Positions 6,960-57,751 of a DNA stretch of 64,000 bases are shown in pieces. This DNA comes from Centroscyllium fabricii. Taxonomy: Eukaryota. The stretch lies in NCBI GenBank assembly GCA_051313645.2, contig JBNRSN020000018.1, positions 35,216,001 to 35,280,000 of the forward strand, written 5' to 3'. The translations under genes were made by a program, and so were the position numbers. Positions within the stretch are counted from its first letter, which is position 1. Every line of letters starts with the position of its first letter. The notes below the pieces were generated by a model, which saw only the letters and a program-made list of their open reading frames with translations, had not been told where the DNA came from and made no database searches.

Positions 6960-7410
6960 GTCTCAGTGGGGAGCACCCTCGCCTCAGTCAGAAGGTTGTG
7001 GGTTCAAGTCCCACCTCAGGGACTGGAGCACAAAAATCTAGGCTGACACTCTAGGTGCAGTGCGGAGGGAGAGCTGCACTGTCTGAGGTGCAGTTTTTCA
7101 GATGAAACATTAAACCGAAGCCCCGTCAACTCTCAGGTGGATGTAAAGCATCCTATGGCACTATTTCAAAGAGCAGGGGAGTTATTCCCAGTGTCCTGGC
7201 CAATATTTATCCCTCAAATCAACATCAAACAGATTATCTGGCAATTATCACATTGCTGTTTGTGGAAGCTTGCCGTGCACAAATAGACTGTTGAGTTTCC
7301 TACATTACAACAGTCCAAAAATTTAAAAGTACTTAATTGGCTGTAAAGCACTTAGGGACTACTGGTGTTTGTGAAAGGGACGATAGAAATGCAAGTCGGT
7401 CTTTCTTTTT
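6960..7410 (+). mobile_element. SacSINE1-like Deu-domain SINE
   Basis: tRNA-like head, GATGAGACGTTAAACCGAGGCCC-type Deu core and L2-like tail. Other copies at ~13860-14280, 20850-21260, 32960-33260, 33340-33690, 34015-34340 and 35897-36305. Confidence 0.8.
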
Positions 7411-8299
7411 CTATACAGAACACACAGGCTCATTGAGTTGGCAAGTATTGTGCTTAATAGTGTAGTGTACATGGAGGATGCCAATACTGGGAAAGGAAAG
7501 AGTTTTCCCTTACTGGGACACATCATTGTCAGCATCAATCACTTCCACTTTCCCACCACAAATAGCCCCAAGAGACTGAAGCAAGACTCCACAGCACAAA
7601 CTGGCAATCGATCATCGTGAACTGGGTTAAGGCTGCCAAGAACAGGTCACAGAAACAAGTCTATAAAAAGGCCCATAGTATACTACGGCCAGAGCGCAGA
7701 ACTACAGTCCCTGGGGAACCACATCCTCAGGAGAAATGAAGGAGTCAGGAGGGAAGTGGAAAGAGGAATAGAACAACATTGGGCAGAATAGCTGAAAGTC
7801 TAGGGATCAGCTCAAAGTTTCAGGACTGTCACGGAGCCGTTTCAGTGGAGCAGCTTTGAGCACAGGATTCCTGGGAATCGGTGGCATATTCAGCATCAAG
7901 CACTTGGACATCTCTCCTGACAGGGAGGCATCGGATGCTCGAGGGAGGCTCCGGATGCTCGAGGGAGGCTCCGGATGCTCGAGATATCCATGGTGCCTGC
8001 ACAAATAGTGCATGCAGGGTAATCTAGTGCATGTGAAGAGGGGAGAGTCATTTTAATCTCACCGATGCCACAGACTCGCTGTATCTCTGTTCACGGCTGC
8101 AGCTCCGAGTGACTTGCTGTGTGAACCCAGTGCGGCCCTCAGCCTGTGGGCACCCTTCACAAGCACTGGTAAATATAGCCCACCCTGCTTTTCACTTGGA
8201 AAAAGGCAGAGAGATCAGCTGCACCAACTTTACAAGATCTGTAATCAGCCTACTTAAGTTCAAGCTGTACATCCTGGACAAGTGGAGACAATGCTGCTT

Positions 8300-8560
8300 C
8301 AGTTAACATTGCTACACTGGGGAGACCAAACACTGATTGGGGAACCACTTTGCAGAACACCTCGGTTCTGTCCACAAGCGTGAATCTGAGCTTCTGGTTG
8401 CCGGTCACTAATTCTCTGCTCCACGCCCACCTCGCCCTCCTACACTGCTCCAATGAAGCTCAACACAAGCTCGAGGAGCAGCACTTCATCTTGCAATTAG
8501 GCACTTTACAGCCTTCCAGACTCAACATTGGAGTTCAACAATTTCAGATCATAACCTCTG
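8300..8560 (+). mobile_element. Penelope-like GIY-YIG endonuclease fragment
   Basis: YTGET...FAEHL...KLEEQHFILQLGTLQPSRLNI, the C-terminal motif of the Penelope endonuclease. Confidence 0.8.
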
Positions 8561-8567
8561 CCCTCAT

Positions 8568-8849
8568 TGACGTATCGTCAATCAAGACAAGAGAGATGAG
8601 TAGTTACCTTAACTATAGGCTTTTATTAACTTATAATGGAGCTAGTCTCCAGTCGAGTTCAAGGCGAGAATGAGCGGGGGCAGGGCGGCCCTCACCTATA
8701 AGCTCCCACCTGAGGGGAGGAGTTAGAGGTGTGGCTGACCTGACCTTACAAACAATATACAGGTGAATACATCCATATGTGACCCCACAGTGTACAAGGC
8801 CCGCCGATGAACCCACAACTATATACAGATGGTAATGACGGTTACCACA
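8568..8849 (-). mobile_element. Solo LTR
   Basis: TG...CA ends, 5-bp TSD CTCAT at 8563-8567 and 8850-8854, AATAAA on the minus strand at ~8620. Confidence 0.8.
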
Positions 8850-10116
8850 CTCATTTCTTCCCCCACCCCAGACAACAGCTGTTGATGATTCAACCATTCC
8901 CATTTACTCAGCAGCACAGGGTGTGTGACGGCCTATACTTGGCCAGGCACCATAATAAGATGCCCTAAACATGAAGCCCAGCTTCAGTATGCTATGGAGG
9001 TGGCCAATGCTGTAGACAGTAACAAATGACAGCCTGGTCACAGTGAGGAAAGCCAAAGTGAGGATAGCTCGGAGTGATACTACTGTTGGAACGGAGGACT
9101 GTCCCATTGTTGCAAACCGGATGCAATCCAGATACAGGAATAGGGACATCGTCAGAGGAGGCTGCAAGTGAAACTGCTCAATGCCTTCCCAATGAAGGTG
9201 GACCAACAAAATTGGAAGGTTATGCAGTTTACCCAATTCAAGCATCAAGGCAACAATATCTTGCAGTTACACAGCATCTTGAACATAGTAAAACGTCCTA
9301 AGGCACTTCACAGGCGTGCAAGACGACAAAAATTAACAAGCCAAAGAAAGAGATAGAAGGTCCGGTGACCAAGAGCTTGGCCAGAGAGGTAGGTTTGAAG
9401 GGGGGGGTCTTACAGGAGGAAAAAGAGGGGTGAAGAGGCAGAGAGATTTAGGGAGGGGAATTCCAGATATCAGGGCCCAGGCAGCTGAAGGCATGATCAC
9501 CAATGGTGGGGTGAAGGAAGATGGGGAATGGACAGAAACACCGTTTGAAACCCAAGTGACCAGTGAGGGCATTGGCCAGCAAAAGGACAATTTAAAGTGA
9601 ACACTTCATCACTTCCTCCACCCCCCCTCCAATGCTGACTGCACAATATCAGGCTTGTGAAGCTGATAAACCACAGCTTGTGAAGCTGATAAACCACAGC
9701 GAGAGTCTGCTCGCCCTCAATCCAGAAGATGAGGTGCTCACAGAATCATTTTTCTACACCCAACAAAATTGGCACACTATATCTAAAATGAGATGAAGTG
9801 TATGGGTCTCAGTCTCCTGGTCCTGCAGCAAGTACTGCTCCTAGGCATCAAACACTGGGCACCAGGATGGGCAATGCCCTGGAATCAACAACAACTTTAA
9901 CACATTTACAAGTTGCAATTAACAACTGGGCCAATAATATCTGCTGAAATTCGGAAATGTTAATCTGATAAGAGTCAGATGGACTTATAGTGTGGACAGA
10001 GTTCCATTGTAACCCGTTAAATGGTTCAACAGCCAGTTTCCTTCCAGGACTTTCTGCACAACATTGTTATGGAAAGTTGGTCTTGTATTGACAGGGGTCA
10101 GAAATTGAGGTCGAAA

Positions 10117-10510
10117 ATGCCAGAGGAGAATAAAGCAGCTCCAAAGAAAGGCACCAAGAAAAACGGTGAAGGGTAGCAAGAAGCAGAGAAGGTCGAGGAA
10201 GGAGAGTTACTCCATTGACCTCTACAAGGTGATGAAGTAGGTTCACCCCCACCCGCTGACACTGCCATCTCCTCCAAGGCCACGAGCATCAAGAAATCAA
10301 CATGTGAGTGCATGGTGGATGAGGCTTCCCCCTGCCTGGACTGTTACAGCTCCCAGGAGATCCAGACGCCCTTACAAGAGCCACAGCACCAACTCCCGGG
10401 AGATCCAGACCACCGTGCACACCTTGCTGCCCCAGGGAATTGGCCACCGGCCAAGTACAGGCGAGTCGGAGGGGACAAAGACAGCAACCAAGTACACCAG
10501 CTCCAAGTAA
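10117..10510 (+). pseudogene. H2B: Histone H2B pseudogene
   Basis: MPEENKAAPKKGTKK, then frameshifted RKESYSI/YKVMK*VHP, DTAISSKA and SREIQT segments, ending EGTKTATKYTSSK-TAA. Contains stops and frameshifts. Confidence 0.88.
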
Positions 10511-10758
10511 AAAGTACTGAAAAAAACCACCTTAGTGCATGTGCTTGCGTGCCGGTGGGGAACTAGACTTCCTGTTAGTGCAACTGAAATGCTAACCATT
10601 AAAATACATTTATACATCTTGTACACCACAGAAGTTTGCAATAACATTCTGCATAATCTTCTCCCATATTACATACACTTAAAGATGAATGCTAGCATTT
10701 TAAATTGTTGAGTTTCTGGAGTTTTGCTGGGCATTCAACTCATCTTGTATTCACTTGC

Positions 10759-10965
10759 CTTCAATGGTCTTGTGGCTGTTACACAGCAAAGCTGTCAAGT
10801 TTGAGTGTGCATGTGGGTGATTAGCAGCATTGCTGAACTGTTCCTGGCACACTTCTGCACAAACAAACCGTCGCCATGAACCATCAGTATCTCTTCTAAA
10901 ACTGGAAGTTGCAGAACAAAAGATATACTCAAGTCTGCTTTGGCGCCAATAGTTGTTTTGGTTTA
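10759..10965 (-). CDS. cax1: Candidate cax1-like exon 2 with GC donor
   Basis: tctttaaag acceptor, 207 nt open in phase 1-1, AAG|GCAAGT donor. Fits in frame between exon 1 and the 5079-5209 exon, but no conserved motif was recognised. Confidence 0.5.
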
Positions 10966-12196
10966 CTTTAAAGACAGACAAGCCAGTACATTAATGCGCA
11001 ATGCCCTTCTTGTGCAAGACCTGGTGATTCAACCATCGGTGACAGATCCATAACCACTGTAGTTTCACCCTGGTGTCAAACAGCTCAAAGCTCTCGCCAG
11101 ACACAACCCAAGTTCAGAAGAACCAGGTTTAAAGTTGTACTTGGATTTCCAAATGCACATCAAATGTGGTGTACAACATGTGTCACACTTCCAATGTCCA
11201 TGTTACAAAATACTTCACTCAAACCTCTACCATACCTCTCCCACTCACTGAGCAAAGCCACGGGCTGCCACTAATTCAATCGTTTCACATCTTACACTTG
11301 AAGGGAGTGAAATGAGAAGGGAACTGGGATTTATAGGCAGTCAAGGTTTCACAGCCTCAACAGTGCATGGATTAACTGTCTGTCCTCCAGCACTAGGAGG
11401 ATCTGCAGAGGATGGAAGGGATGTTAAACAAATCCTTCAACAGCATCATCTTCACCGAGGAGTTTGTGACTTGCTCACTTAAGCAGAGTTTAAAATACTT
11501 TCTCTGCAATTCTTATTCCCCATTCACAGCGCACTGTATACCGCCTCCATAGCTGGCTAGAAAACCCAGCGCTTGCTCGAGTTTCCACTACTCCATTGGA
11601 GTTAAGTAATTGGGACTGGAAAGAGGGAAACTACTAGTGAGTCCATTTTTACAAATCATTCAATTCCCTGGTTATTGGAACCCAGCAGTTAAAATTAAAA
11701 CCACAAAAAGGAATCAGTCATTTCACACAAACTTGCATTTAAAACTCATTCAGGTGAAGGGTCAATGCCCAAAACATTGGCCTATCTTCCCCTTTCGAAT
11801 GCTTACAGTATTTCAAACCAGTTGCAGTATCACGTGATACCATAACCCGGGGTCAGCTAATCTTGTTCTTAATAACTTAATCGCTCTGTTGCTTCAGTGA
11901 CCAAATTTCATTTCTTGTCATGTAATCTTCCCAACTGATGCCAGCAACCACTAAAAAACAAACTAGGGTTCTCAACAACTATGACAAAGCTGCAGACAGG
12001 CAGAGATTGTTGGCAAAGCGACAACTGGTCGACAGTCACCAGTAAAAAATAAAAATCCTGCAACTTTTCCTATTCACCCTTAGAATGTGGCACGGCCAGT
12101 ATTCATTGCCTATCCCTAGCTTCTAAGAAGGTAGCGATGAGCTGACTTTTTGAACTGCTGCAGCCTATGTGGCAAAGGTGCTCCCATAATACAGCT

Positions 12197-12544
12197 GCAA
12201 ATGCAAAAAGTCACAACACCAGATTTATAGTCCAACGGTTTTATTTTAAATCACAAGCTTTCGGAGCGTCTGCCCCTTCGTCAGGTAACAAAGAGAGACT
12301 GAAGTTAAAGATCACACATCGGGGGAGGGGGGAAATCCGATCTCATACATCTAACCCTATGTATGAGATCGGATTTCTCCCCTCCCCCGATGTGTGATCT
12401 TTAACTTCAGTCTCTCTTTGTTACCTGACGAAGGGGCAGACGCTCCGAAAGCTTGTGATTTAAAATAAAACCGTTGGACTATAAATCTGTTGTTGTGACT
12501 TTTTGCATTTGTCCACCCCAGTCCAACACCGGCACCTCCACATT
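12197..12544. mobile_element. Fold-back Penelope terminal-repeat insertion with hammerhead cores
   Basis: Near-perfect inverted arms of ~150 bp around a loop at ~12351-12359. 11-bp TSD ATAATACAGCT. CTGACGA-stem-GAAAGCTT in each arm. Confidence 0.85.
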
Positions 12545-15195
12545 ATAATACAGCTAGTTATTCTTTGTAGTGGTTTGATACAACGGAGTGGCTCGCTGGA
12601 CCATTTCAGAGGGAAGTTAAGACTTAGCTACATTGCTTTGTGCCTGGAGTCACATGTAGGCCAGACCAGGCAAGGACAGCAGATTTCCTTCCCTAAAGGA
12701 CATTAGTAAATCAGCTGGATTTTTACAGCAAGACAGCTTCATGGTCACTTTTATTGATACTATCCCTCCAACCCCTTTTCCCTCATCCACCTGTCCAATC
12801 TAATCTTGAATGTTGACGGTCTCTGCCTCAACCCTAACCCTGGAATAAATTCCACAACCTCAACTGTGTGGGGTTGCGGGGATAGGGTGGGACATGTGTC
12901 GGTGCAGGCTCGATAGGGATCGAGGGATATGGGGAGAGGGCAGGGATGGTGCTGGGTTTGGATGATCAGCCATGATCTCATTGAATGGCGGAGCAGGCTC
13001 GAAGGGCCAAGTGGCCTCCTCCTGCTCCTATCTTCTATGTTTCTAACTCCAGCTAAGATGAGCTCATTTTCAAAGCTGAGGGACCAAACCTGGGTCCTTA
13101 TTTATCTGTTGGGCCCAGTATTCACTTCTTCAACCAGATGAGCCATCAAGGGAGCCAAGAGGCCATTAACATGATTAGAAAGTACTGCAGGGACTTTCAT
13201 GGCTGATTGGGCCCGAGGACCCAATGTCCACTCTCTAGGAAGGTTTTTTTTTTTTTTTTTTTAAGTTCCTGCTTCAACAACCTATTTTTTGTATAAGACC
13301 CATAAGTTAAACAACTCTGTTCATAACGTGCTTAACATTGAATGTGACCAAAGAAAAAAAAATGAAAACCAAGAGAGACAGTTTCACATTTGTTCAAAGG
13401 TTGCAGCAGTGATCACCATCCTCAGATGTGCCTGCTGCTGGAATTGTGGGAACCATAATAAAATTTGCACTTACAACTCATGGTAACTGCAACAGAGATG
13501 GATTCCTGCTCACTGCATGCAACAAGCTCAGTACCTTGGTTATTCTTACATCCGGTGAGCACAGTTGGATTTAATTGCACCAAAGGTTAGATAGAACACC
13601 CAATAGAATCCTAAAATGACACCCAGGGAATATGAAAAAAAAACCTCACCGTTAAAGACCAAGCCACACGACTAAGAAATACAGATGAGGATGACTGAAC
13701 TGACATGGGCCAAATAGTCATTTAAAAATCTTCCAATTGACCAACTGCTGACTCCCCCCCCCCCCCCCCCCACCCCCCTCCCCCCCCCCCCACCCACAAC
13801 CACCCCCCCCCACCCACAACCACCCAATTACTCTAACTGCAAGCCCTTACTGGGTACTCAGCCTTGGCTCAGTGGGCAGCGCTCTCCCCCCGCAGAGTCA
13901 GGTTATGGGTTCAAGTCCCCCTCCAGCGACTGGAGCACAAAATCCAGGACAACCTCCCCCCCCACAGCGCAGTACTGAGGGAGCGCTGCACTGGTCAGAA
14001 GTGGCATCTTTCTGAAGAGACGTTAAACAGAGACCCTGACATCCCGCTCAGGTGGACGCAAAAGATCAATGATGAGCAGGGGAGATCTTCCTGGTGTCTT
14101 GGTCAATATTCATCCTTCAACCAACAGAACAGATTATCTGGTCATTATCACATTGCAGGTTGTGGGAGCTTGCTGTGCACAATTTGGCTGCCACATTTCA
14201 AGTACTTCATTGGCTGGAAAGTGCTTTGGGACAGCCTGAGGTTGTGAAAGGCACTATATAAATGCAAGTCTTTCTTTCATTACATCAAAAACTCCCTGGT
14301 TGTGTTCCAAAGGTTGTCATTTTGAAAGACTAGCCCATCCATTCGATTTGCAGCCCGTATTTAATTAGCCGCTGACTCATGAACAAATGATTGTGAAATG
14401 TTGATGGGAATGCAGCAATAGCAATCACCATTCCCCTTCAGCTGGAACCTAGAGTCTGCAGCAGTGTGGCAATATTTGGAGGGTATCCCCCACACACGTT
14501 TGAAAAGGCAACTGTTCCACCGTGAACTCTTGGCAATTCAAAATTGGATTTGCACTCAAATGTTTTAAATATCCAATAACTTGGCATTTTAAGCAGCAGA
14601 CTGGAAATTCAGTGCAAAAAAAAAATTGTAGGAGATAATTTGAATATGAATGACTTTGAATAAGGAGGAGGCCACTTAGTGGTTTGTAAGTTGCATCAAG
14701 ATCAGACTTGGGCACCATATAGGCAGATACAGTTCCTCCAAACCACCATATAAAACAAACATTCAGCCACTGTGCTGCCAAAAGATCAAGGTACAGAATC
14801 TGACCTCAAGACTCACACTCCCCCCTCCAATCAGTCAGTCATGACACCAGCACCAGTGACTCACGGCTGGTAAAATTACTAACAATCCAAGCACAAGTTA
14901 GAACATTCCAGTATTTTCTGCACCACTTGCACTCCCAGACAAGATAGAAGAAAATGCCACTATTATGTGCATAGATTGTCTGTTCACACAACAATTACCT
15001 CATTTAGAGGCAATCAACCAGCTTTCATTCTCCCTCCTCCCCTATTACACAAAAAGTCTCCTACTCTAACTCATTTACCTGCAAGACTTCAAAAACCTCT
15101 CCTGCTTCAAACAAGCTCCTGCTTGGCTCCACCTGAACTCTACTTCCCAAATAACTTTTTTCTTACCCGTTGACCTTAAGTGACCTGCACTGTGG

Positions 15196-18822: not shown

Positions 18823-19178
18823 CAGGTCCGACACCATTAATCCGGCATGGTCGGGACCAGGCCGGTGCTGAATTCGTGAAAAATCCAAACGATTGAAGCT
18901 TCGGTGAGCGCATGCGCAGACCATTCAAAATGGCCAGCGCGAAGCATTTTGAATGGCCTGCGCATGCGCTCGCCAAAGCATCAGTCGCTCGGGGAGGCCC
19001 GGGCATACGCAGCCAAGCGCGGCGGCCATTTTGCACATGTGCAGACCAGTCTGGCAGTCGGAGAGAGGCCCGCAAGCGCGGTGGCGATTTTGCGCATGCG
19101 CAGACCAGTCGGCCGGATTCATTCCGGACGACTGAAGTTAGCGTATTACCGGTGTCGGGATTAACGGTGCTCAACCTG
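18823..19178 (+). mobile_element. pogo/Tigger-like MITE, copy A (no cargo)
   Basis: TA TSD. TIRs CAGGTCCGACACCATTAATCC / GGATTAACGGTGCTCAACCTG. Internal GCGCATGCGC and CAAAATGGC repeats. Splits a CR1 3' fragment. Confidence 0.9.
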
Positions 19179-44697: not shown

Positions 44698-45133
44698 CAG
44701 GTCCGACACCGTTAATCCGGTATGGTCAGGACCAGGCCGGACCAGTGAAAAATCCGAACGATTGAAGCTTCGGCGAGCGCATGTGCAGTCCATTCAAAAT
44801 GGCCGCTGTGCAAGTCGGTGGCCATTTTGAATGGACTGCACATGCACTCGCCAAAGCATCAATCGTGCGGGGAGAGGCCCGGCCATGCGCAGCCACGCGC
44901 GGCGGCCATTTTGCGCAAGCGCAGACCAGTCAGGGAGAGGCCCGGGCACGCACAGCCAAGCACGGCGGTCATTTTGCGCATGCGTAGACCAGTCAGGCAG
45001 TCGGGGAGAGGCCTGGGCATATGCAGCCAAGCGTGGCGGCCATTTTGCGCATGCACAGACCAGTCAGCCGAATTCGTTCCAGACGACTGAAGTTTCCGGA
45101 TTAACGGCGTCTGGATTAATGGTGCCGGACCTG
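44698..45133 (+). mobile_element. pogo/Tigger-like MITE, copy B (no cargo)
   Basis: TA TSD. TIRs CAGGTCCGACACCGTTAATCC / GGATTAATGGTGCCGGACCTG. Three ~60-bp internal subrepeats. Confidence 0.9.
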
Positions 45134-47680: not shown

Positions 47681-48233
47681 CAGGTTGAGCACCGTTAATC
47701 CGGCAGACGGGACCAGGCCCATGCCGGGAAAGTGAAAATCCCAAACGATTGAAGCTTCGGCGGGCGCATACCATTCAAAATTGCCGCCGCGAAAGGCCGG
47801 CGGCCATTTTGAGTGGTCTGCGCATGCGCTTATCGTTCGGTAATGCCCGGCTCGGTAAAGTGAGGCGAGGCCCGGCTCGGGAAACCCCGGGAAGGCTCGG
47901 TAAGGCGAGGCCCGGCTCGGGAAGCCCCAGCTCGGTAAAGCGAGGCCCGGCTTGGGAAGGCGAGGCCCAGCTCGGGAAGCCTCGGGAAGGCGAGACCCGG
48001 TACGGGAAGGCCCGGCCCGGGATTGTTCGGCAGCGCATGCGCAGATCATTAAAAACTTTGCGGCGGCCATTGTGAACGATCTGCGCATGCGGTCGGCGGC
48101 GCATGCGCAGATCATTTACTGAAGCATCGATCACGGCGGCCATTTTGCGCATGCGCAGGACAGTCGGGGCAATTTGTTCCGGAAGACCGAAGCTGCCGGC
48201 TTATCGGGGAACGGATTAACGGTGCACAACCTG
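47681..48233 (+). mobile_element. pogo/Tigger-like MITE, copy C (GC-rich tandem core)
   Basis: TA TSD. TIRs CAGGTTGAGCACCGTTAATCCG / CGGATTAACGGTGCACAACCTG. Core of AGGCCCGGCTCGGGAAG-like repeats. Confidence 0.9.
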
Positions 48234-53567: not shown

Positions 53568-53809
53568 CATATTGTAGCTGTTGCCAGGCGAGTACATCAT
53601 GGAGGATGGGAAGGATCCACTCCCCGGCGGGGAAGGTGTCTGCGTGGTCGGACTAAACCCCGTTATACAGTTGGGGCTGAACTTGGGGCTGGAGCCGAGC
53701 GGCCGTTGAGGGCTGTAGGACAGGACGGTCTGCCCCTGGGCGACGCCCGGCGGGGAGCTGTTCGGGGTGGATGTGGTGGCCGGCTTCTGCTGCGGAGTCG
53801 TCTGGATCC
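53568..53809 (-). CDS. TMEM209: TMEM209 exon 5
   Basis: (G)IQTTPQQKP...QGQTVLSYSPQRPLGSSPKFSPNCITGFSP...YSPGNSYNM, ag/gtatgt. Confidence 0.92.
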
Positions 53810-54357: not shown

Positions 54358-54359
54358 TA

Positions 54360-54890
54360 CAGGTTGAAGTTCATTAATCTGGCAGGGTCGGGACCAGCAC
54401 CCTGCCAAATGGCTTTGGCGGCGCATGCGCAGAGCATTCAAAATGGCGGCTGCGAAAGGTAATTTTCAGCCCTAGGGTCGGGTGGAACTCACAGGACGCA
54501 CTCGATTCTGCTGCCCGTGGTGGATCAGGGAAGCGGGCTGCACGGCTCCAGCCCGGCTCACGTGACGTCACCGCACGCCAGCTTCGGAATGCGGTGACGT
54601 CAGCACGCAGCAGCCTCCGGCAGCGATGGGGAGCCGGGCGCCGAGTTTTGGCTGTACCGCGTCCTGCGAAAGGCGGCAACAGCTCATTTTCTGGGCCTAG
54701 GATTCACCATCGGCATCGGGGTGGTCACTAAGCCGGGATCCAGTGAGTATATGTTAGGTGAAAGGGAAGCCCAGCCCCAACGGTGGCCATTTTGAATTGT
54801 CTGCGCATGCGCCGGGCAGTCGGGAAAATCTGTGCCGAACGAACTGAAGCTGCCGGTTTTTTGGGTGCCGGATTAACGAACTTCAACCTG
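54360..54890 (+). mobile_element. pogo/Tigger-like MITE, copy D, carrying a captured CYB561D gene fragment
   Basis: TA TSD. TIRs CAGGTTGAAGTTCATTAATC / GATTAACGAACTTCAACCTG. Inserted in an L2 tail (AAAGGCGCTA|TATAAAT). Unique core at ~54460-54780. Confidence 0.9.
54626..54748 (+). pseudogene. Captured first coding exon and donor of cytochrome b561 family D (CYB561D1/D2)
   Basis: EPGAEFWLYRVLRKAATAHFLGLGFTIGIGVVTKPGS then A|GTGAGT. Resembles the CYB561D YRxLR...[10 protein letters not shown]...RPG(S/T) segment with a phase-1 intron. The ATG at 54626 needs a 1-nt frameshift to join this frame. Confidence 0.75.
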
Positions 54891-55012
54891 TATATAAATA
54901 AAAATTGTAGATGTCTTCCTGTCAAGAGACTTTTCGCATCTCTATATTACTATGGTCAGTACTGCTCTGAACTTTCCCCTCTCATTTCTTCCAATGTTCC
55001 TGTTCTTCCAAT

Positions 55013-56422: not shown

Positions 56423-56677
<255 letters not shown>

Positions 56678-57065: not shown

Positions 57066-57751
57066 CAGGTTGTGCACCATTAATCCGCCACGGGCGGGCC
57101 AGGCCCGTGCCGGGAAACTGAAAAAACCGGGAGAACGAAGTTGGACACTGCGCATGCGCACCATTCAAAATGGCCGTGCGCATGCGCACAACATTGGGAT
57201 TGTCTGGCGCGCGCATGCGCAGATCAACCAATAATGGCCGCCGCGAAGTTTTTTGAGGGGCTCAGGCTTGTGTGGCGTTCAGTTTGCCTTTTAGGGCTGT
57301 CGGGCAGCAGTGAAAGGCCGGTCTTGCGAGGGGGGGGGGGGAAAGGAGGGTTGTGCGGGCGCGGGTCGGGCCCAGTAGGTCCGCCTTCCCTCTCCATCGC
57401 CTATCGGGTTGCTGCTGCTGCCGAGCCGGACTCAGGCTGACAGCTGTTGCCTAGTGACTGTCCGCCTCAGTCACGGGGCTCAGCTGTCGAGAAAATAACC
57501 GGCGGCCGTATTGAATTATCTGCGCATGCGCTAACCGTCCGGCGACGCATGCGCAGATGATTCAAAACAGCCGGCAGCCGTTTTGAATGATCTGCGCATG
57601 CGCTCGTCGTTCAGCGGCGCATGCGCAGATCATTCGCCGAAGCCGCGATGGCGGCTGCCATCTTGCGCATGCGCAGTGCAGTCGGGGCAATTTGTGCCGG
57701 CAGACTGAAGCTGCCGGCTTTTCGGGACACGGATTTTCGGTGCACAACCTG
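57066..57751 (+). mobile_element. pogo/Tigger-like MITE, copy E, with promoter-like cargo
   Basis: TA TSD. TIRs CAGGTTGTGCACCATTAATCCG / CGGATTTTCGGTGCACAACCTG. About 8 GCGCATGCGC-type palindromes. Unique GC-rich core at ~57255-57497. Confidence 0.9.

Follow-up and report, generated by a model that had tools for sequence, protein, structure and literature searches.

Positions 54360-54890 of a 64,000-nucleotide stretch of the genome of the shark Centroscyllium fabricii (hereafter the window) are occupied by a TA-flanked, non-autonomous Tigger/pogo-like MITE whose core derives from the host gene CYB561D2. Together, the observations below make it very probable that this copy belongs to a high-copy Pack-TIR family, in which a Tigger/pogo-like MITE carrying a 375-bp piece of CYB561D2, likely captured once, was likely spread by Tigger transposase acting in trans. 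The initial annotation had proposed that a TIR element captured the promoter region, first exon and splice donor of a CYB561D gene; the parental gene has now been found, it lacks element arms and it is CYB561D2, while the promoter part of the claim is one that we infer from CpG-island character and motifs.

Anatomy of the window copy and its parental gene

The outer boundaries of the element, TA followed by CAGGTTGAAG at one end and CTTCAACCTG followed by TA at the other, span 54358-54892. The terminal inverted arms pair over 27 nt at 93% complementarity, TA counted in, and an inner 29-nt inverted repeat joins 54419-54447 to 54786-54814. Read on the plus strand, the element consists of a left MITE arm (54360-54455) with a 25-bp TIR at 54360-54384 that starts with CAGGTTGAAG; the captured upstream region of CYB561D2, likely its promoter and 5'UTR (54456-54625, aligned to G000:C1156:5726377-5726166); the captured first coding exon (54626-54742); a phase-1 splice donor GTGAGT with 39 nt of CYB561D2 intron (54743-54781); and a right MITE arm (54782-54890) with its TIR at 54866-54890. 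The TA dinucleotides at 54358-54359 and 54891-54892 are a true target-site duplication (TSD), because the surrounding host repeat has a single TA in its uninterrupted copies, which read AAAGGYRC-TA-TATAAAT or a close variant in 6 of 12 pattern matches (two of the others are the filled site itself and four are other sequences).

Pack TIRs read CAGGTTGAG/AAG. The window copy has TIRs at both ends and a TSD, as Pack-TIRs do, and combines a TA duplication with a short TIR, as Tigger/pogo MITEs do; the Tigger label also rests partly on what we take to be a resemblance to human Tigger ends. Transposase-coding sequence is absent from the element, and a Pfam scan of the 38- and 61-residue cargo translations returned no family, Pfam having left exon 1 unscored. 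The ATG at 54626 leads through an EPGAEFWL...KPGS frame to A/GTGAGT, with the GT at 54743. Upstream of it lie TCACGTGAC at 54558 and TGACGTCA at 54563 and 54595, which we take to be an E-box and two CRE sites, and the arm repeats GCGCATGCGC and AAAATGGCGG are presumably NRF1- and YY1-like sites, respectively. The two CREs had initially been read as a 13-bp inverted repeat. Such a repeat does extend across 54563-54602, but at the first position the parent has TGACGCCA, which is also the most frequent form in each of the three subfamilies of the element, so that the first full CRE, and hence the perfect repeat, is a private change of the window copy.

The parental match lies on the minus strand at G000:C1156:5726377-5726003. 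Its 375 bp comprise 212 bp upstream of the ATG, a coding exon of 124 nt and a further 39 nt of intron, all of which are matched by the cargo, and the window core is identical to it in 296 of 325 aligned columns (91%). The parental gene is intact, with three coding exons of 41 codons plus A, 38 nt beginning with GT, and 167 codons; the GT completes a Ser codon after the A, confirming the phase-1 intron expected at this donor. Compared with 152 proteins of the cytochrome b561 family, the fragment matches CYB561D2 of sharks and rays best (E 1e-19). A PF03188 search of the genome gave eight exon matches, including one CYB561D1-like and one CYB561D2-like last exon; homologues of the latter carry the name CYB561D2, and the last exon of the parent is 93% identical to sawshark CYB561D2. 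When 60 kb upstream of each of these two last exons was fetched, the core matched the D2 locus only. The fragment shares 87% amino acid identity with the D2 exon-1 locus as opposed to 41% with that of D1, which rules out CYB561D1 as the donor.

No TIR arms surround the parent in the 60 kb fetched, where the nearest arm-like match is ~23 kb away, and the similarity between parent and copies stops sharply on both sides, at the points where arms begin in the copies and G-rich tandem arrays in the parent. The element thus holds internal non-TE sequence with an identifiable parent that is unlinked to a TIR element, which excludes segmental duplication and end bypass. The parent lies among GC-rich tandem arrays close to one end of its 6-Mb contig, and its first exon is a short unique segment with a G-rich tandem array on either side (G000:C1156:5725640-5726900). 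The upstream part is a CpG island (GC 0.66, CpG observed/expected 0.73) and is likely a promoter on these features; a GC box immediately upstream of it was left outside the captured piece. The numerous copies described below may confound both gene annotation and read mapping at CYB561D2.

Copy number, subfamilies and sequence evolution

Thousands of TIR-flanked copies of the cargo are present in the genome. All 40 scored matches to the core, from 3,836 candidates, are 86-100% identical to it, and a donor 20-mer has 5,703 exact genomic matches, compared with none for a reversed-pattern control. Two overlap estimates, both of which assume independence, suggest roughly 9,000-12,000 cargo copies in total. 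Overlap of the 20-mer with TIR-pattern loci gives ~12,000 (7,600-30,000), based on 30 loci that resolve into 22 distinct elements, 13 of them with cargo and 6 of those 13 matching the 20-mer; overlap with subfamily-B matches gives ~9,300 (7,100-14,000), since 16 of 26 such matches at the start of contig C1 carry the 20-mer. Cargo density is therefore ~one copy per 0.6-0.8 Mb. Copies at 30 donor-pattern loci occupy distinct insertion sites with unrelated flanks; where an end could be recognised, TA adjoins it in 23 of 25 cases on the left and 24 of 26 on the right. Some cargo matches sit in ~49-kb tandem segmental arrays (C1:226.7-227.1 Mb), so match counts overstate independent jumps somewhat. 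One large array of this kind, G000:C1:226693098-227081868, holds nine subfamily-B copies of the same variant at a spacing of ~39-55 kb.

Cargo is carried by 95 of 119 TIR-bounded intervals extracted from the loci collected (duplicates included) and is missing from the other 24. The initial statement that the core is absent from sister copies holds for the sisters in the window but not for the thousands of copies elsewhere. Sister MITEs that share the arm motifs and lack CYB561D2 cargo lie at 18823-19178, ~44760-44860 and ~57460-57750 of the window, and another, at 47681-48233, belongs with a set (L132, L135, L145, L149-L152, L157 and L160) whose cores are expanding GC-rich minisatellites, up to ~1.6 kb.

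The cargo copies form three subfamilies, O, A and B, with 307, 887 and 3,458 exact 26-mer matches, respectively, and none for the controls. Subfamily O retains the full UTR, an ATG GCG GAG start and mostly an older TIR, CAGGTTGAGCACC. Subfamily A, to which the window copy belongs, is marked by an 8-nt UTR deletion, a 1-nt frameshift just past the ATG and usually a 6-nt deletion, and the frame is open in 1 of 30 copies. The window copy has the UTR deletion typical of A, and its frameshift and coding deletion, initially ascribed to decay after insertion, are inherited rather than local damage, because both are shared subfamily-A marks; the deletion, put at ~3 codons, removes 6 nt (two codons, in frame), and the retained intron, put at ~30 nt, measures 39 nt. 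This copy is also ~40 nt shorter than its sisters at the junction of arm and cargo, and its left arm is common to a cargo-less sister. Subfamily B is the largest, accounting for 25 of the 30 donor-pattern loci, and carries a 9-nt in-frame deletion. Its ATG, hydrophobic helix and phase-1 donor are in frame in 24 of 31 copies, which divide into 21 of 25 selected on the donor and 3 of 6 from a sample chosen without regard to it; in one of these three the donor is weakened. A tree was built from the parent and 90 copies, with one duplicate, one truncated copy and five unclassified ones set aside (one of the five was brought back as an O locus). In it, B forms one clade (support 0.91) and A is nested among O. 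The E-box/CRE module is present two or three times in tandem in 11 of the 30 donor-pattern copies.

Copies differ by 4-5% from the commonest letters of their own subfamily and evolve near-neutrally, with pN/pS of 0.72-0.93, so that their open frames need no selection as an explanation. The parent is under purifying selection, differing from the O column-majority by six synonymous changes and one non-synonymous change (Fisher p=0.009). At that single non-synonymous site the parent has Y and O copies have F, as do Heptranchias, sawshark and rays; the parental exon thus survives in an older form in the copies. A possible sign of hypomethylation of the Pack copies, CpG decay of 9-14% as against 16% in Tigger (32 sites), was discarded as too weak and sample-biased.

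Origin of the cargo and its mobiliser

The extent of the matching DNA bears directly on how the cargo was acquired. Insertion of a retrocopy or mRNA fragment into a MITE has nothing in its favour except that the cargo includes coding sequence. The cargo agrees with the genomic parent over 39 nt of intron and 212 nt of DNA upstream of the ATG, neither exon 2 nor poly(A) is present, and the intron match refutes this far-fetched account. Capture at the DNA level, as first suggested, stands on the same intron and upstream DNA. The opposite direction of transfer, in which the host gene would have exapted its exon from the MITE, deserves even less credence: the element is far more numerous than the gene, as exaptation would have it, yet the parent is without arms, cargo-less sisters with the same arms exist, and homology of the exon across sharks, coelacanth and mammals refutes the proposal.

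A foreign donor is improbable, though less so than either of these. Under this explanation the orthologue of a related shark, or a lost paralogue or allele, supplied the piece, and the loaded MITE came in by horizontal transfer or introgression. It draws on the synonymous divergence of the parent from the ancestral-type majority, which is 0.17 (6 changes in ~35 sites) compared with 0.05 per site in the copies (Poisson p about 0.01), and on the F that the copies share with other sharks and rays. To account for the synonymous excess, either the local rate must be fast or the donor must have differed slightly. Against the latter, the intron differs at 1 of 39 columns and the upstream region by 12 substitutions in ~207, the parent branch of 0.052 compares with copy tips of 0.036-0.044, and the genome has only one D2 last exon among its PF03188 matches. 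A fast local rate is plausible for a gene in GC-rich arrays near a contig end, higher synonymous rates on short, GC-rich chromosomes having been reported in sharks (PMC10620051).

We favour capture of the host's own CYB561D2 DNA. Uptake of the piece was likely a single event, in which template switching or gap repair placed it in the interior of a MITE, and the loaded MITE then likely spread to thousands of sites through Tigger transposase supplied in trans, with O probably the first subfamily and A and B following. A cargo-less sister has both arms in common with an O copy. At the left junction the arm (...TCGCCG) and the parent (...TTGCCG/GTACC) share a 4-nt GCCG microhomology, and the right junction shares 1-2 nt; template switching is suggested because such microhomology fits it, and the position of the parental exon between G-rich arrays would plausibly suit fork stalling. 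The same model of capture followed by transposition has been proposed for multicopy Pack-TIRs (PMC8277862).

The genome's dominant DDE_1 family measures ~2.4 kb, is TA-flanked and encodes CENP-B_N, HTH_Tnp_Tc5 and DDE_1, a domain order described as common to Tigger and pogoR (PMC7386202). Loci L081-L121 and L126-L130 show this Tigger-type family with CAGGAAACTC ends and long frames, some copies on contig C967 having frames of 558 aa. Its end and the Pack arm have CAGG...ATCCGGCA...CGGGACC...TGCCGG in common (score 70, against a maximum of 45 in 500 shuffles), and its non-CpG divergence is 2.9%, compared with 2.6-2.8% for Pack copies, top-scoring copies being biased towards young ones. The family, with ends related but not identical to those of the MITE, is a likely candidate for the mobiliser. 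From 1,715 DDE_1 candidates, 150 of them listed, 50 loci were examined: 47 are members of a single related family, three (L122-L124) form another group, and none has the exact Pack TIR as its own end; TIR-like matches inside these loci proved to be inserted MITEs and were rejected as ends.

Several cargo-less intervals have other CpG- or GC-rich non-arm cores, and the three that were searched are all multicopy. A young MITE of the same arm family (L097:2377-3076, core 2527-2807) has a GC-rich core with a reverse CCAAT and a donor-like site, CGG/GTAAGG; it yielded 1,274 candidates, with best copies 98-99% identical and both TIRs found by strict scan in 28 of the 30 top loci, and is possibly a second captured promoter and first exon. 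The second MITE (L021:2467-2826, core 2620-2767; 4,181 candidates) has a minus-strand core with CpG observed/expected of 1.1 that ends in TTG/TAAGT before a minisatellite. The third, of 807 bp (L025:371-1177, core 580-1000), has a ~420-bp CpG-island-like core, 2,335 candidates and best copies 95-96% identical. Two of these three cores thus have donor-like GT-AAG sites. For two of the cores the 30 best loci were inspected, and no clearly arm-less one was seen: both TIRs were present by strict scan in 28 and 20 loci, respectively, and the rest had arm or repeat sequence in the parts inspected. A further MITE (L148:745-1525) has a CpG-rich core with a CGG/GTAAGT site and a CCGGAAGT motif, presumably ETS-like.

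Genomic context, possible function and relation to known systems

The window element lies antisense in an intron of TMEM209, a minus-strand gene at 25798-60521 of the window. The sawshark TMEM209 protein maps through the window exon by exon, sawshark, sevengill and horn shark being the sources of the best protein matches for this 7.2-Gb genome, which is therefore likely that of a squalomorph. The element falls between the minus-strand exons at 56539-56670 (upstream in host orientation; sawshark residues ~74-118) and 53568-53809 (downstream; residues 119-197). This agrees with its initial placement antisense in intron 4, a number that holds if the first five residues stem from an upstream exon. 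The Pfam family of TMEM209 is named CytochromB561_N (PF09786), a coincidence of naming unrelated to the CYB561D2 cargo. Frameshifted and antisense, the window copy is most likely an inert passenger. Seven listed sequencing runs, from three studies and two organisms and none of RNA, contain the window stretch; the four with at least half of its words come from one study, and small shares of words carry no evidential weight.

The cargo could serve as a ready-made gene start at thousands of sites, and subfamily-B copies, with putative promoter, ATG and donor, would be able to act like HelibatN3 in trapping downstream exons. Nine matches in a 50%-cluster protein library include no chimeric protein among the seven read, of which two are spurious repeat proteins and five are short forms with the ordinary CYB561D2 start rather than that of subfamily B. 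A search for longer chimeric proteins returned no match and, having missed shark CYB561D2 itself, carries no information on this point. More tentatively, a vertebrate system resembling Pack-MULEs may have repeatedly captured housekeeping promoters and first exons, including CYB561D2 and at least three other CpG-rich cores, and scattered across the shark genome working cassettes of promoter, ATG, membrane anchor and phase-1 donor that start membrane-targeted chimeric transcripts; taken as a whole, we consider this proposal rather doubtful. With ~one copy per 0.6-0.8 Mb, most having an in-frame ATG-to-donor exon, the old question of whether captured promoters and first exons seed new transcripts or are silenced becomes directly testable.

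In animals, cut-and-paste transposons were considered to give rise to multicopy gene captures only rarely. Tan et al. (2021) report 370 Pack-TIRs in 100 animal genomes with only four multicopy families, in frog and alligator, one example being a 291-bp 5'UTR in three copies; the fly Ssk-FB4 is also described, and elephant shark is given a count of zero (PMC8277862). In the open-access literature we found no report of a CYB561D2 MITE family or of any shark Pack-TIR; an unannotated repeat-library consensus may exist. The shark element resembles the animal Pack-TIRs of that survey, which include Tigger-based cases in mammals, in having a host fragment inside TIRs, a TIR-less parent, junction microhomology and GC-rich cargo. 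Unlike them, it has at least 5,703 matches, is split into several subfamilies and shows its captured module duplicated in tandem (PMC8277862). It is well supported that the CYB561D2 MITE has every Pack-TIR property examined and that its scale sets the family apart from published animal cases. As in the Tigger/pogo elements characterized by Gao et al. (2020), the TSD is TA and the TIR does not exceed 40 bp (PMC7386202); unlike them, the MITE is without transposase, the CENP-B_N, HTH_Tnp_Tc5 and DDE_1 domains being those of the related autonomous family.

The cargo anatomy mirrors that of HelibatN3 and related bat Helitrons, for which trapping of downstream exons has been shown (PMC4778049, PMC4224331). 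HelibatN3 is, however, a rolling-circle Helitron without TIRs or TSD, and its captured coding part is described as six codons, whereas the shark element is a cut-and-paste element with a whole 41-codon exon and its hydrophobic helix. Assignment of the shark element to the Helitrons, which have TC...CTRR ends, an AT target and no TIRs, was rejected, as it has TIRs and a TA duplication. Plant Pack-MULEs likewise have TIRs and pick up and disperse GC-rich fragments from the 5' parts of genes (PMC8277862, PMC4224331), but they belong to the Mutator superfamily and are described as carrying many genes at low copy each, in contrast to the one gene at very high copy seen here, where any further cargos are putative. 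One cargo at ~ten thousand copies indicates that TIR elements in a vertebrate can match the bat Helitrons.
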